64,000 nt of DNA from Escherichia coli (GTDB lineage: Bacteria > Pseudomonadota > Gammaproteobacteria > Enterobacterales > Enterobacteriaceae). Positions within the stretch are counted from its first letter, which is position 1; every line of letters begins with the position of its first letter. Both the position numbers and the translations under genes were made by a program. Under the pieces are notes generated by a model. The model had not been told where the DNA came from and made no database searches. It saw only the letters and a list, made by a program, of their open reading frames with translations. Where the stretch lies: assembly GCF_045037415.1 (NCBI RefSeq), contig NZ_CP173438.1; one strand, given 5' to 3'. Positions 1-50,410 of the stretch are shown here, piece by piece.

Positions 1-1880
1 TTGCAAAAAATGAAAAAAGTAGTGCGACAGGTATATCTCTGGAAGCGACCACGGGAAATAATTTAACGCTCAATGGCACAACCATAAATGCTCAAGGTAA
101 TAAGAGTTCCAGCAACGGCTCTACGGCAATTTTTGCTCAAAAGGGTAATTTGTTGCAGGGTTTTGACGGTGATGCAACCGACAACATCACCCTTGCTGAC
201 TCAAATATTATTAATGGTGGGATTGAAACAATAGTTATTGCCAAGGAGAATAAGGGAATTCATACAGTCAACCTGAATATTAAGGATGGCTCAATAATTG
301 GGGCGGCTAATAATAAACAAACAATTTATGCCTCTGCTTCGGCACAAGGCGCAGGTTCAGCAACGCAAAATTTAAATTTGTCTGTTGCTGATTCAACCAT
401 CTACTCTGATGTCCTGGCCCTTTCTGAAAGCGAGAATTCAGCCGGTACCACAACAAATGTAAATATGAACGTTGCCCGCTCTTACTGGGAAGGTAATGCT
501 TATACGCTCAATAGCGGCGATAAAGCGGGTAGTGATCTGGATATAAATCTTTCCGATAGTTCAGTCTGGAAAGGCAAAGTTTCAGGGGCAGGAGATGCCA
601 GTGTATCTCTGCAAAACGGGTCTGTCTGGAATGTTACGGGTTCCTCAACTGTTGATGCTCTGGCAGTAAAAGACAGTACGGTTAATATCACGAAGGCTAC
701 AGTCAATACTGGCACGTTTGCTTCTCAAAACGGCACTCTGATTGTTGATGCCTCTTCTGAAAACACTCTGGATATCAGCGGAAAAGCGAGCGGTGACTTG
801 AGTGTTTACAGTGCGGGTTCATTGGATCTTATCAATGAACAAACGGCATTTATTTCTACCGGCAAAGACAGCACTCTAAAAGCCACAGGCACAACGGAAG
901 GTGGTCTGTATCAATATGACCTGACACAGGGAGCTGATGGTAACTTTTATTTCGTAAAAAACACGCATAAAGCATCCAACGCCAGCTCCGTGATTCAGGC
1001 AATGGCAGCTGCTCCGGCTAACGTCGCTAATCTGCAGGCTGACACGCTCTCCGCCCGTCAGGATGCTGTCCGTCTGAGCGAAAATGACAAGGGTGGCGTA
1101 TGGATTCAGTACTTTGGCGGTAAACAGAAACATACCACCGCGGGAAATGCATCCTATGACCTGGATGTAAATGGTGTAATGCTGGGTGGTGATACCCGCT
1201 TCATGACTGAAGATGGTAGCTGGCTGGCCGGTGTGGCGATGTCTTCTGCGAAAGGTGACATGACTACCATGCAGAGCAAAGGTGACACTGAAGGTTACAG
1301 CTTCCACGCTTACCTGAGCCGCCAGTATAACAACGGTATCTTCATTGATACTGCTGCACAGTTTGGTCACTACAGCAACACGGCAGATGTTCGCCTGATG
1401 AATGGTGGCGGTACCATCAAAGCTGACTTTAACACCAATGGTTTTGGTGCGATGGTTAAAGGCGGTTACACATGGAAAGACGGTAATGGCCTGTTTATTC
1501 AGCCATATGCCAAACTGTCTGCTCTGACTCTGGAAGGTGTGGATTATCAACTCAACGGCGTGGACGTTCATTCTGACAGCTATAACTCTGTGCTGGGTGA
1601 GGCCGGTACGCGCGTGGGTTATGACTTCGCTGTGGGCAACGCGACCGTTAAACCTTATCTGAATCTGGCCGCACTGAACGAATTCTCTGATGGCAACAAA
1701 GTCCGTCTGGGTGATGAGTCTGTCAATGCCAGCATTGACGGTGCAGCATTCCGCGTGGGTGCAGGTGTACAGGCTGATATCACCAAAAACATGGGAGCAT
1801 ATGCAAGCCTTGACTACACCAAAGGTGACGACATTGAGAACCCGCTACAGGGTGTAGTTGGTATCAATGTGACCTGGTAA
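1..1880 (+). CDS. Autotransporter adhesin (AIDA-I/Ag43 type), C-terminal passenger repeats plus beta-barrel translocator; gene begins upstream of the window
   Basis: Frame is open from nt 3 to the stop at 1878-1880 (the 150..1880 ORF is its TTG-started tail); Gly/Asn/Thr/Ser-rich repeat passenger, then barrel-like C-terminus ending in an aromatic residue (GINVTW). Confidence 0.7.
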   Translation, partial: AKNEKSSATGISLEATTGNNLTLNGTTINAQGNKSSSNGSTAIFAQKGNLLQGFDGDATDNITLADSNIINGGIETIVIAKENKGIHTVNLNIKDGSIIGAANNKQTIYASASAQGAGSATQNLNLSVADSTIYSDVLALSESENSAGTTTNVNMNVARSYWEGNAYTLNSGDKAGSDLDINLSDSSVWKGKVSGAGDASVSLQNGSVWNVTGSSTVDALAVKDSTVNITKATVNTGTFASQNGTLIVDASSENTLDISGKASGDLSVYSAGSLDLINEQTAFISTGKDSTLKATGTTEGGLYQYDLTQGADGNFYFVKNTHKASNASSVIQAMAAAPANVANLQADTLSARQDAVRLSENDKGGVWIQYFGGKQKHTTAGNASYDLDVNGVMLGGDTRFMTEDGSWLAGVAMSSAKGDMTTMQSKGDTEGYSFHAYLSRQYNNGIFIDTAAQFGHYSNTADVRLMNGGGTIKADFNTNGFGAMVKGGYTWKDGNGLFIQPYAKLSALTLEGVDYQLNGVDVHSDSYNSVLGEAGTRVGYDFAVGNATVKPYLNLAALNEFSDGNKVRLGDESVNASIDGAAFRVGAGVQADITKNMGAYASLDYTKGDDIENPLQGVVGINVTW

Positions 1881-16758: not shown

Positions 16759-19682
<2,924 letters not shown>

Positions 19683-21940: not shown

Positions 21941-23083
21941 ATGACAAATAAACACCCATCATTGTTTTCTCCTTTTATGCTGACAGAAAAAATAAAGCTA
22001 CGTAATCGTATCGTTATGGCTCCTATGACAACCTGGTCAGCTAATCCTGATGGAACCATCTCTGAGCAAGAACTCGAATTTTATAAACGTCGCTCACAAA
22101 ATGTTGGTTTAGTAATAACAGGATGTACCTATGTCACGCCAAGCGGCATTGGGTTTACTCATGAATTTGCCGCGTATGACGACCGTTTCATTAACAGCCT
22201 TGAAAAGTTAGCAGCTGCAGCCAAAAGTGGCGGTGCTCCGGCTATTTTGCAGATTTTCCACGCCGGTAATAAAGCCATCCCGGAGCTTGTGCCAAATTAC
22301 GATGTTATTAGTGCCAGCGCATCAAGCGTAAAATCTGGTGACTTTATGAAGAGAGTGGTACAAAGCAGGGAAATGACTGAAAACGAAATTCAGGAAACCA
22401 TTAGAGCATTCGGAGATGTCACAAAAAGGGCGATTAAAGCAGGTTTTGATGGCGTTGAACTTCATGGTGCGCACGGATTCCTTCTGCAGAATTTCTTCTC
22501 CCCTCTATTTAACCAGCGTAATGACCGATGGGGAGGAGATCTTGAAGGACGTATGCGCTTCCCGCTGGCCGTATTACAGGAAGTAAAAAATGTAGTCTAT
22601 GAATATGCGACAAAGCCCTTTGCTATCGGTTACAGAATATCTCCTGAAGAATCTGTAACAGGGGGACTGCGGATAGAGGATACTTATAAACTCCTTGATC
22701 GGCTCATTTCATCCGGTATTTCGTATATACATACCTCGCTGGTCAGTATTAACGATAGCTACCCTGTTGAGTCGCCAAATGGTCCCCGAACTATTGAATT
22801 GATTTTAAATCATATTGCAGGCAGAGTGCCGGTAATCGCCGCAGGTAAAATACGCACACCGTCTCAGGCTCAAGAAGCAATTTCCGCTGGCCTGCCACTT
22901 GTTGCGATCGGTAAAGGGCTGGTGATAAATCCAGAATGGGTGACTTTAGCTGAATCAGGTAGAAGTCATGAAATTCAAACAGCCCTTAATCCACAACGCG
23001 TTCCTGAATTAACCATTCCGGATAAACTATGGGATCAAATTCAGGCATCGAAAGGAACTGGCTGGTTTCCGTTAATGGATTAA
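21941..23083 (+). CDS. NADH:flavin oxidoreductase / Old Yellow Enzyme family
   Basis: OYE-family organisation (N-terminal MAPMT, central GVELHGAHGFLLQNFFSP); 380 aa. Confidence 0.75.
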   Translation: MTNKHPSLFSPFMLTEKIKLRNRIVMAPMTTWSANPDGTISEQELEFYKRRSQNVGLVITGCTYVTPSGIGFTHEFAAYDDRFINSLEKLAAAAKSGGAPAILQIFHAGNKAIPELVPNYDVISASASSVKSGDFMKRVVQSREMTENEIQETIRAFGDVTKRAIKAGFDGVELHGAHGFLLQNFFSPLFNQRNDRWGGDLEGRMRFPLAVLQEVKNVVYEYATKPFAIGYRISPEESVTGGLRIEDTYKLLDRLISSGISYIHTSLVSINDSYPVESPNGPRTIELILNHIAGRVPVIAAGKIRTPSQAQEAISAGLPLVAIGKGLVINPEWVTLAESGRSHEIQTALNPQRVPELTIPDKLWDQIQASKGTGWFPLMD

Positions 23084-23513
23084 ATATCGATTACTCTCCC
23101 GAGAGTAAAACTATCAAATCAATGAGTAACCGATACAGCCTCGCAAATTCTTTCAGATAATTAACCCGTCACTGCGGCACGTTCTCTCGCAAGGCGTGCC
23201 TGCAGTGTAATCCAGTATGTATCCGGCATAGTTGACGGTTTAATAGACTCAATTCCTCTCCCTGGTTACCTACAACGATATCTTGTATAACACCCCAGGA
23301 GATACGACGTTACGATGAGATGCGATATGCTCCTCAGCGCCAATCAACGCCAGGACTGGGCCAGTCTTGAGATCAGACTCATTCCCGTAACTGATTTCAG
23401 GCGACATATATCAATGACGTTGGGGCAATAAAAGATAGCCGATGTAATACATCTATTCAAATTTGTGATACATGTCAAAAAATTGGTTGACCAAACTCGT
23501 TATTTATATAAGG

Positions 23514-23537
23514 GCACTTACGAAGTGCACTCTTTTT
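23514..23537 (+). terminator. Short hairpin (gcactt-acg-aagtgc) followed by a T6 run
   Basis: Read directly; intrinsic-terminator-like, 20 nt before the ykgR ribosome-binding site. Confidence 0.4.
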
Positions 23538-23555
23538 TAAAGCGAGGAAGTACCA

Positions 23556-23657
23556 ATGAAAGAGAATAAAGTACAGCAAATCAGTCATAAACTGATTAAT
23601 ATCGTTGTTTTTGTCGCAATTGTAGAATACGCCTATTTATTTCTCCATTTCTATTAA
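23556..23657 (+). CDS. ykgR: Small membrane protein YkgR (33 aa)
   Basis: ATG 23556 preceded by gaggaag; encodes MKENKVQQISHKLINIVVFVAIVEYAYLFLHFY with one hydrophobic helix; not in the ORF track because under 60 aa. Confidence 0.5.
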   Translation: MKENKVQQISHKLINIVVFVAIVEYAYLFLHFY

Positions 23658-23992
23658 TAACGGCAATAAACTGTTCACTTCAGTGATATTTAAAATATGC
23701 ATCCTCTCCCTTTTTTGTAAGTAATTATTATATCCGTGGGAGAGGAATACACATTGTCAGGTAATCAATCATGCTGCAATAAATCATCGGCCAGTAAAGT
23801 GGAGATAGCCTCCATTCTCGAAAAATCCATACTCTCAGCGAAACCATCATCAATCACTCATCCAGGCGTTTATGGGAGCGTCGCCAATGGCTGCTAACAA
23901 TGCCAGACTTCCCCGTTGCGGAAATTCCACATCCCACAAATAGTCACAGTGATTGGGTGTTGAAATGATCCGGATGAGCATGTATCTTTACG

Positions 23993-24010
23993 GTTATGTT
24001 ATAACATAAC
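23993..24010 (+). promoter_or_regulatory. Zur-box-like perfect 18-bp palindrome GTTATGTTATAACATAAC just upstream of ykgM
   Basis: Palindrome read directly; resembles the Zur consensus core TGTTATA-N-TATAACA; ykgM-ykgO are known zinc-repressed ribosomal paralogs. Confidence 0.55.
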
Positions 24011-24021
24011 AGGTAAAAATG

Positions 24022-24285
24022 ATGAAACCCAATATCCATCCTGAGTATCGTACTGTGGTGTTCCACGACACCAGCGTTGATGAGTACTTTAAAATCGGCT
24101 CGACTATCAAAACAGACCGTGAGATTGAGCTGGATGGCGTAACGTATCCGTACGTAACAATTGATGTCTCTTCGAAATCGCACCCGTTCTATACAGGGAA
24201 GCTGAGAACAGTGGCATCAGAAGGAAATGTTGCACGGTTCACCCAACGTTTTGGTCGTTTTGTTAGCACGAAAAAGGGGGCATGA
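24022..24285 (+). CDS. ykgM: Ribosomal protein L31 paralog (zinc-independent), YkgM/RpmE2 (87 aa)
   Basis: L31-like sequence lacking the CxxC zinc ribbon ([18 protein letters not shown]...). Confidence 0.85.
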
Positions 24286-24425
24286 TGAAAGTCCTTAACT
24301 CTCTGCGTACCGCAAAAGAACGCCATCCAGACTGTCAGATTGTGAAGCGAAAAGGACGGCTGTATGTGATTTGTAAATCTAATCCACGTTTTAAGGCCGT
24401 TCAGGGTCGTAAGAAAAAACGTTGA
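24285..24425 (+). CDS. ykgO: Ribosomal protein L36 paralog YkgO/RpmJ2 (46 aa)
   Basis: ATG overlaps the ykgM stop (ATGA); encodes [46 protein letters not shown]; below the ORF-track size cutoff. Confidence 0.8.
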
Positions 24426-24475
24426 TTTAAAATTCGACGAATTAACGATATTTGTCTGATTAATAATCAGACCGG

Positions 24476-24515
24476 ATTAATGTTGGTGTATTTATTACAC
24501 CAGCATTAATTTTCC
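24476..24515 (+). terminator. Intrinsic terminator after ykgMO: 15-bp imperfect stem then TTTTCC
   Basis: attaatgttggtgta-tttat-tacaccagcattaat followed by a T-run. Confidence 0.5.

Positions 24516-49951: not shown

Positions 49952-50410
<459 letters not shown>

Follow-up and report, generated by a model that had tools for sequence, protein, structure and literature searches.

The Zur-repressed ykgM-ykgO operon of Escherichia coli and the neighbouring small membrane protein gene ykgR

Introduction

The genes ykgM and ykgO encode paralogues of the ribosomal proteins L31 and L36, and a small gene, ykgR, is located upstream of them in the same orientation. The original prediction for this locus united the three genes in a zinc-limitation module, which raises the question of whether ykgR indeed belongs to the zinc response, and of what a short hairpin with a T6 run in front of ykgR might do. 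The locus is part of a 64-kb stretch of an Escherichia coli chromosome, referred to as the window in the following, in which positions 23300-24600 match many complete genomes with 100% identity; the segment is present in 5087 of 5426 complete genomes. Its counterpart in strain K-12 MG1655 is found at 312.3-313.8 kb on the minus strand and shows 98% identity. Genes were named according to the RefSeq annotation of an identical genome, in which ykgL is a frameshifted gene on the opposite strand and the three genes of interest are placed as follows.

23556-23657, plus strand: ykgR, a small membrane protein of 33 amino acids (annotation; NCBIfam NF041474, 78.1 bits with a cut-off of 40, aligned over residues 1-33 of 33)
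24022-24285, plus strand: ykgM, a type B (zinc-independent) ribosomal protein L31 of 87 amino acids (annotation; NCBIfam NF002462, 122.9 bits with a cut-off of 86)
24285-24425, plus strand: ykgO, a type B ribosomal protein L36 of 46 amino acids (annotation; NCBIfam NF002021, 91 bits with a cut-off of 70)

The 5' neighbours of ykgR are a gene for an alpha/beta hydrolase and a gene for an NADH-dependent flavin oxidoreductase (21941-23083). Of these genes, only a 90-bp remnant, 'ykgP', is left in K-12, whereas the strain studied here keeps them.

The segment very probably comprises two independent transcription units, ykgMO and ykgR. Its core is the well-studied Zur-repressed zinc-starvation operon ykgM-ykgO, which is already known and whose picture is unchanged by the present analysis. 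The identity of the operator, the binding of and repression by Zur, the protein families, the gene arrangement and the 3' end of the ykgR transcript rest on data presented here or already in print.

The Zur operator of ykgM

The perfect 18-bp palindrome that had been predicted just upstream of ykgM is present: GTTATGTTATAACATAAC occupies positions 23993-24010, ends 11 nt before the annotated ykgM start codon and occurs a single time in the window, even if three mismatches are allowed. Perfect palindromes with 9-bp arms are found three times in the window, with 0.66 expected by chance; palindromy by itself is not rare, and the feature that goes beyond chance is the match to the Zur motif.

23992-24011, strand not applicable: Zur operator PL31p (pattern match, matrix score and conservation; EMSA and repression published for K-12)

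The operator agrees at 19 of 20 positions with the structure-based two-dimer pattern TGWNAYRWTATAWYRTNWCA, which has a central TATA; the sole departure is position 1, where the operator carries a G and the pattern a T. This is the only match to the pattern in the 64 kb at up to two mismatches, and 0.17 matches would be expected by chance. For formal scoring, a matrix was built from the K-12 znuC, zinT and pliG operators only, and the ykgM site was left out. On this leave-one-out matrix, the ykgM site reaches 24.3 bits and the training sites 25.3-27.7 bits, while none of 200 random 64-kb sequences attains 24.3 bits (maximum 19.9). The next independent site in the window scores 11.0 bits and is located away from ykgR; the matrix scan detected no further Zur boxes in the 64-kb window. 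Orthologous loci were collected with one genome per species, which returned 80 ykgM loci, 78 of them from outside Escherichia. A Zur-type site with at most two mismatches to the pattern is found upstream of ykgM in 76 of the 78 non-Escherichia loci, and in 70 of the 78 the site immediately follows a TTG...TAnnnT promoter, with its end 10-13 nt from the start codon. The proposal that the palindrome is the Zur box of ykgM is thus borne out by the pattern, by the motif scan that had been suggested as a check and by conservation among orthologues.

It has been shown that two Zur dimers bind K-12 PL31p, which carries the identical palindrome, in an all-or-none cooperative manner (Gilston 2014; PMC4219657). 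In the same study, which cites Panina 2003 for the K-12 ykgMO/PL31p system, binding was demonstrated by EMSA, PL31p had the lowest apparent Kd among the four E. coli operators compared, and it conferred 560-fold repression in vivo (PMC4219657, Table 3). Zinc-dependent Zur binding and repression are already experimentally established for the K-12 operator and, the sequence being identical, can be expected to carry over to the operator described here. Apart from the G instead of T at position 1, essentially nothing speaks against this reading of ykgMO.

YkgM, YkgO and the ykgMO transcript

The original prediction described the L31 and L36 paralogues as lacking the zinc-ribbon cysteines, which is true for YkgM but only partly for YkgO. 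In an alignment, residues C16, C18, C37 and C40 of RpmE correspond to T, V, S and S in YkgM, which does not contain a single cysteine. Residues C11, C14, C27 and H33 of RpmJ correspond to H14, C17, C30 and F36 in YkgO; two of three L36 cysteines are therefore retained, the first being replaced by histidine, and the claim of lost cysteines is only partly true. H14, C17 and C30 are conserved in nearly all YkgO orthologues.

The junction of ykgM and ykgO reads GCATGATGAAAG. According to the annotation, ykgO starts at the second ATG (24285) and has a single nucleotide in common with the ykgM stop codon (TGATG). The 'ATGA' overlap proposed earlier stems from the first ATG (24282), a codon that is GTG in K-12 and that provides this strain with an extra in-frame start; it is a strain-specific feature. 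Orthologues of ykgO begin with MKV or MQV, and the spacing between ykgM and ykgO is -4 to +5 nt in most of them (Enterobacteriaceae). The ATG at 24282 is probably not the real start of ykgO.

Two further elements frame the operon.

23960-23988, plus strand: sigma-70 promoter of ykgMO, TTGAAA-17-TATCTT (9 of 12 matches in a consensus scan; identical in K-12)
24454-24514, plus strand: probable ykgMO terminator consisting of tandem hairpins (fold, inverted repeat and palindrome; putative function on the plus strand)

The same promoter hexamers have been given for ykgMO by Shimada 2014 (PMC3946193). The palindrome begins 4 nt after the -10 hexamer TATCTT (23983-23988) and should therefore overlie the transcription start that we infer from these hexamers. 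Under zinc-sufficient conditions, two zinc-loaded Zur dimers would sit cooperatively on the palindrome and cover the start, and RNA polymerase would produce no mRNA; when cytosolic zinc falls, Zur would leave the operator and ykgMO would be transcribed. Translation of ykgM and ykgO, whose stop and start codons share one base, is predicted to be coupled. The cysteine-free L31 paralogue and the L36 paralogue with its incomplete ligand set would then take the place of the zinc-binding L31 and L36 in the ribosome. In addition, a study from 2022 reported that L31B represses the translation of rpmE via the rpmE 5' UTR (PMC9825181).

The ykgMO transcript probably ends at the tandem hairpins and U-run at 24454-24514. 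A 19-bp perfect palindrome (24454-24472) is followed here by a 17-pair stem across 24474-24512, whose 3' arm runs into TTTT (24511-24514), and the whole element folds with -29.8 kcal/mol (z-score -5.8). The Term-seq 3' end at K-12 312325, which lies beside the second hairpin 3' of ykgO, belongs to the opposite strand.

The ykgMO/Zur switch illustrates how enterobacteria free zinc and keep their ribosomes running during zinc starvation, including the starvation imposed by nutritional immunity of the host. It is already well described, down to an operator model based on a crystal structure.

ykgR as a separate transcription unit

The 33-amino acid open reading frame predicted upstream of ykgM is present, contains one hydrophobic segment and is annotated as ykgR. 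In the literature, YkgR is described as a small membrane protein that is induced in stationary phase, inserted via SRP and cleaved by RseP. Of 5426 complete E. coli genomes, 5071 carry the gene. Searches with tblastn and blastn identified ykgR loci in three lineages, all within Escherichia, namely E. coli, E. albertii and a divergent one whose genome was deposited as E. coli; in each of them ykgR and ykgM share their orientation, and ykgR precedes ykgM by around 360-465 nt. The same searches revealed no ykgR at any of the 78 non-Escherichia loci with ykgMO. While ykgMO and its operator span the Enterobacterales, ykgR is found in Escherichia alone.

23702-23751, plus strand: 3' hairpin of ykgR (CCTCTCCC...GGGAGAGG core) and RNA 3' end (fold; Term-seq)

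The hairpin downstream of ykgR (23702-23746) folds with -19.4 kcal/mol (z-score -4.7). The Term-seq supplement of Adams 2021 contains a strong 3' end at K-12 313047(-) in two of its three condition lists. By alignment, this end corresponds to window position 23751, which is 94 nt past the ykgR stop codon, 6 nt past the hairpin and well before the ykgM promoter. Thus, ykgR is a transcription unit apart from ykgMO with a 3' end of its own. The unit would begin at its own conserved promoter-like block at around 23450-23512 and extend to the strong 3' hairpin and RNA end at 23702-23751. Each transcription unit in the region has a strong 3' structure, namely 23170-23207 after the oxidoreductase gene, 23702-23746 after ykgR and 24454-24514 after ykgO.

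Small membrane proteins often modulate transporters, and ykgR and ykgM keep their shared orientation in three Escherichia lineages; both points would fit a role of ykgR in the response to zinc limitation, either by co-regulation with ykgMO or by an action of YkgR together with the zinc-free ribosomal proteins or a zinc transporter. We nevertheless consider such a role very improbable. The matrix scan of the 64 kb detected no Zur-box-like site near ykgR, the RNA 3' end of ykgR precedes the ykgM promoter, and none of the 78 loci outside Escherichia, in which ykgMO and the operator are retained, contains the gene. In an O157:H7 genome, ykgR is a frameshifted pseudogene. The published properties of YkgR, which are stationary-phase induction, SRP insertion and RseP cleavage, do not concern zinc, and no bacterial zinc or Zur study naming ykgR was found among the full-text matches listed. 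The separate 3' end, the lack of a Zur-like site and the restriction to Escherichia thus leave the proposed membership of ykgR in the zinc module unsupported, and a small chance of a zinc link persists in view of the synteny of ykgR and ykgM within Escherichia.

The weak hairpin in front of ykgR

A minor remaining question is how ykgR is transcribed and whether the short hairpin in its leader does anything. Two elements upstream of the gene are of interest here.

23464-23479, plus strand: candidate CRP-like site TGTGAtacatgTCAAA (9 of 10 core positions of TGTGA-N6-TCACA)
23514-23538, plus strand: weak hairpin, ACTC and T6 in the ykgR leader (sequence, terminator scan and folding)

The hairpin consists of a 6-bp stem (23514-23519 and 23523-23528) with three G-C pairs and the loop ACG, and it is followed by ACTC and the T6 run (23533-23538). 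Hairpin and T-run had been placed 20 nt before the ribosome-binding site; both exist, but the distance from the end of the T-run is 6 nt to the Shine-Dalgarno sequence GAGGA and 17 nt to the ykgR ATG. The Shine-Dalgarno sequence is predicted to be accessible (pairing probability 0.05-0.08). The core stem has a folding energy of -4.8 kcal/mol, an extended form reaches -6.6 kcal/mol, and the z-score of the fold is -1.7. A permissive terminator scan of 1.8 kb (23000-24800) returned this hairpin as its single site, and shuffled sequence gives 1.4 sites; the hairpin is no better than chance. A scan of 22800-25600 against Rfam at E-values up to 10 yielded chance-level matches only, none of them at the hairpin or the operator.

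A block of around 60 nt directly 5' of the hairpin is kept in all Escherichia lineages, and farther upstream E. albertii no longer aligns. The block contains the CRP-like site, a GATGT-N3-ACATC repeat, TTGGTTGACCAA and an A/T-rich -10-like stretch, TATTTATATAAG. The CRP-like sequence is the only such match in the window, where 2.1 would be expected by chance; its two half-sites remain constant across all ykgR leader variants seen, and the spacer varies. If it acts as a class II site, a type centred about 41.5 bp upstream of the start, transcription would begin near G23513-23514, and the ykgR mRNA would then open with the hairpin. No sigma-70 promoter upstream of ykgR passes the consensus scan, and the supplements of Cappable-seq and SMRT-Cappable-seq contain no entries at the ykgR start coordinates in either K-12 coordinate version. 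Reg-Seq 2025 includes ykgR in its set of genes.

Between this strain and K-12, the block 23440-23665 is uniformly invariant. Despite seven substitutions in the 15 hairpin bases, E. albertii retains five of the six pairs, through one double change from A-U to G-C and two G-U pairs. Since there are few independent lineages (three), the number of retained pairs does not reach significance (83 of 500 shuffles). The G-U pairs work only in RNA of the plus strand, which argues for a feature at the RNA level on this strand. The E. albertii stem comprises nine pairs, abuts the U-run with -8.7 kcal/mol and reaches into bases upstream of the proposed start. The divergent Escherichia lineage has lost one pair of the stem. 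The T6 run and the flanking CTC are invariant in six of six aligned ykgR leaders; a set of 101 metagenome copies is uninformative on T6 because the search pattern required TCTTTTTT. In these copies, the only single-base stem change within E. coli is A to G, which keeps the pairing (U-G). In two contigs (L091 and L127), the 5' arm and the loop are missing owing to a 12-nt deletion, and ykgR itself is intact; the existence of two such natural variants suggests that the hairpin is dispensable.

It is reasonable to regard the hairpin as regulatory rather than as a terminator. The reading that we tentatively prefer, and hold to be quite possible, is that it forms a stem-loop in the 5' leader of the ykgR mRNA and influences stability or leaky early termination; the hairpin would most likely be located no more than a few bases from the mRNA 5' end and would not be the terminator of an upstream gene. 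This leader reading is suggested by the conserved block, which starts only around 60 nt before the hairpin at the point where the E. albertii alignment begins, and by the G-U pairs of E. albertii, which fit plus-strand RNA. It gains further from observations that weaken the notion of an intrinsic terminator or insulator, which would stop transcripts of the hydrolase/oxidoreductase operon or an unannotated upstream RNA before they reach ykgR. Such a terminator would account for the hairpin being the sole terminator-like match in 23000-24800, for the growth of the stem toward the T-run when upstream bases are included, for the longer E. albertii stem that abuts the U-run and for the constancy of T6 and CTC in all aligned leaders. 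However, the E. coli core stem is weak and separated from U6 by the 4 nt ACUC, shuffled sequence yields as many such sites, and the hydrolase/oxidoreductase operon already has a far stronger 3' structure of its own (23170-23207, -21.7 kcal/mol). Moreover, in E. albertii and at the divergent Escherichia locus no upstream gene on that strand is nearby. Term-seq in three conditions (Adams 2021) recorded no 3' end at the T-run (K-12 31325x-31328x), a comparison that is limited by very short RNAs and by the missing upstream operon in K-12. Taken together, a terminator before ykgR appears unlikely.

We also think it rather unlikely that the hairpin and T6 are functionless, that is, a short inverted repeat that arose by chance in a conserved, AT-rich promoter and leader region. 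The modest z-score, the chance-level outcome of the terminator scan, the covariation short of significance, the broken pair in the divergent lineage, the deletion contigs with intact ykgR and the equal invariance of the whole block 23440-23665 would all be expected of such a repeat, whereas the five pairs that E. albertii keeps through compensating and G-U changes and the pairing-neutral A to G change within E. coli would not.

Some observations on the hairpin run counter to the leader reading. The E. albertii stem extends upstream of the proposed start, as the stem of a terminator of incoming transcripts would. In addition, the scan found no sigma-70 promoter, the number of CRP-like sites is within chance, the covariation is not significant and the two deletion variants do without the hairpin although their ykgR is intact.

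Three other candidates were considered and rejected. Attenuation by a leader peptide would involve a 22-amino acid open reading frame (23472-23540) that spans the hairpin and terminates within the T-run; in the other Escherichia lineages, ACC or ATC stands in place of the ATG of this frame. A palindromic DNA operator would not tolerate the pairing of E. albertii, which needs G-U pairs that are suitable for plus-strand RNA but not for DNA. Pairing of the U-run with ykgR codons 1-3 (CUCUUUU/GAAAGAG, predicted probability 0.78) is disrupted by two uncompensated substitutions in the divergent Escherichia lineage and thus lacks support.

It seems improbable that either the hairpin/U6 element together with the upstream block (CRP-like site and GATGT-N3-ACATC repeat) represents an uncharacterised, Escherichia-specific leader tuning the small membrane protein YkgR through early termination or 5'-end stability, or the adjacency to ykgMO reflects a role of YkgR in zinc starvation.

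Comparison with known systems

The putative leader hairpin of ykgR would resemble, by analogy, the 5'-terminal stem-loops of the ompA type, which stabilise E. coli mRNAs. The likeness lies in a short stem-loop near the presumed 5' end and upstream of an accessible Shine-Dalgarno sequence; in contrast to the ompA type, the ykgR stem is weaker and followed by a U6 run, and its position relative to the 5' end is deduced from the promoter-like block.

The ykgMO part of the locus matches K-12 PL31p in its promoter hexamers, the 18-bp palindrome, the 5' leader and both proteins, save for silent or adjacent SNPs; one of these, C for T at 23991, is located one base outside the operator 20-mer. With the znuA/znuC, zinT and pliG operators, the ykgM site shares the 20-bp two-dimer architecture, the TATA at the centre and the RNNNY elements. 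It differs from them in being a perfect palindrome and the tightest binder, and in its G instead of T at position 1.

A similar Zur logic governs a C- ribosomal paralogue in B. subtilis, the L31 paralogue YtiA, although the Zur boxes of Gram-positive bacteria are unlike the present operator in sequence. In Yersinia pestis, Zur represses ykgM-rpmJ2 by the same logic, and the encoded cysteine-less paralogues replace the zinc-binding forms during zinc starvation (PMC2706843). None of these loci includes ykgR. The position of the operator is kept across the Enterobacterales, including the locus described here.

Conservation upstream of ykgR

The segment at 23440-23665 (about 225 nt), which comprises the block upstream of ykgR, the leader hairpin and the coding sequence of this small membrane protein gene, shows 100% identity to K-12, and its flanks differ from K-12 at 2-4% of positions. 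Two short inverted repeats are found in the conserved upstream block (23451-23463 and 23483-23494), both of which could be regulator sites. The arms of the repeat GATGT-N3-ACATC are invariant across Escherichia and its spacer is variable; the other repeat, TTGGTTGACCAA, reads TTGGTTGGCCAA in E. albertii.

Further upstream, a strong hairpin without a U-run is predicted at 23170-23207 (-21.7 kcal/mol, z -4.4), around 90 nt past the stop codon of the flavin oxidoreductase gene. K-12 retains only the remnant 'ykgP' of this gene but has conserved the hairpin stem.

Natural alleles and copies of ykgR

An identical 12-nt deletion of GGCACTTACGAA, which is flanked by AAG repeats, was found in two metagenome contigs, L091 and L127, which differ in their background SNPs:

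L091, near 1361-1390, minus strand: 12-nt deletion
L127, near 1128-1157, minus strand: 12-nt deletion

In both, the leader hairpin has lost its 5' arm and loop and ykgR is intact. The deletion is a natural allele that is ready for testing this hairpin. In E. coli O157:H7, the annotation gives ykgR as a pseudogene (strain MB41-1, L087, 216-316), with a frameshift caused by the loss of one T from the run GTTGTTTTTG. The ykgR region has two to three matching places in some genomes, and 13 matching places are located on plasmids.

Hairpins downstream of ykgO and the status of ykgL

Two tandem hairpins are found 3' of ykgO, the first of which is the 19-bp perfect palindrome GTCTGATTAATAATCAGAC (24454-24472), with the ykgO stop codon located 29 nt before it. 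This palindrome, which differs by one arm base in K-12, shares bases with the 3' end of the reading frame of ykgL, which lies on the opposite strand. Two other perfect palindromes are present in the window:

50380-50398: TTTTACCAAATTGGTAAAA, 9-bp arms
18019-18035: ATCAACACCGTGTTGAT, 8-bp arms

A long hairpin (24475-24514) lies between ykgO and ykgL, and published Term-seq data place an RNA 3' end at this hairpin on the strand of ykgL (K-12 312325, + strand of K-12), a position inside the annotated ykgL reading frame. In this strain, ykgL is frameshifted, which casts some doubt on whether it is a real gene.

Metal-ligand residues of YkgO

Among the 78 YkgO orthologs recovered (24285-24425 of the window and loci L003-L082), Cys17 and Cys30 are kept in all 78 (RHPDC...VIC), and His14 is kept in all but one. 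YkgO still possesses metal-binding residue types at three of the four positions that align to the zinc ligands of RpmJ, although it is classed as the zinc-independent form.
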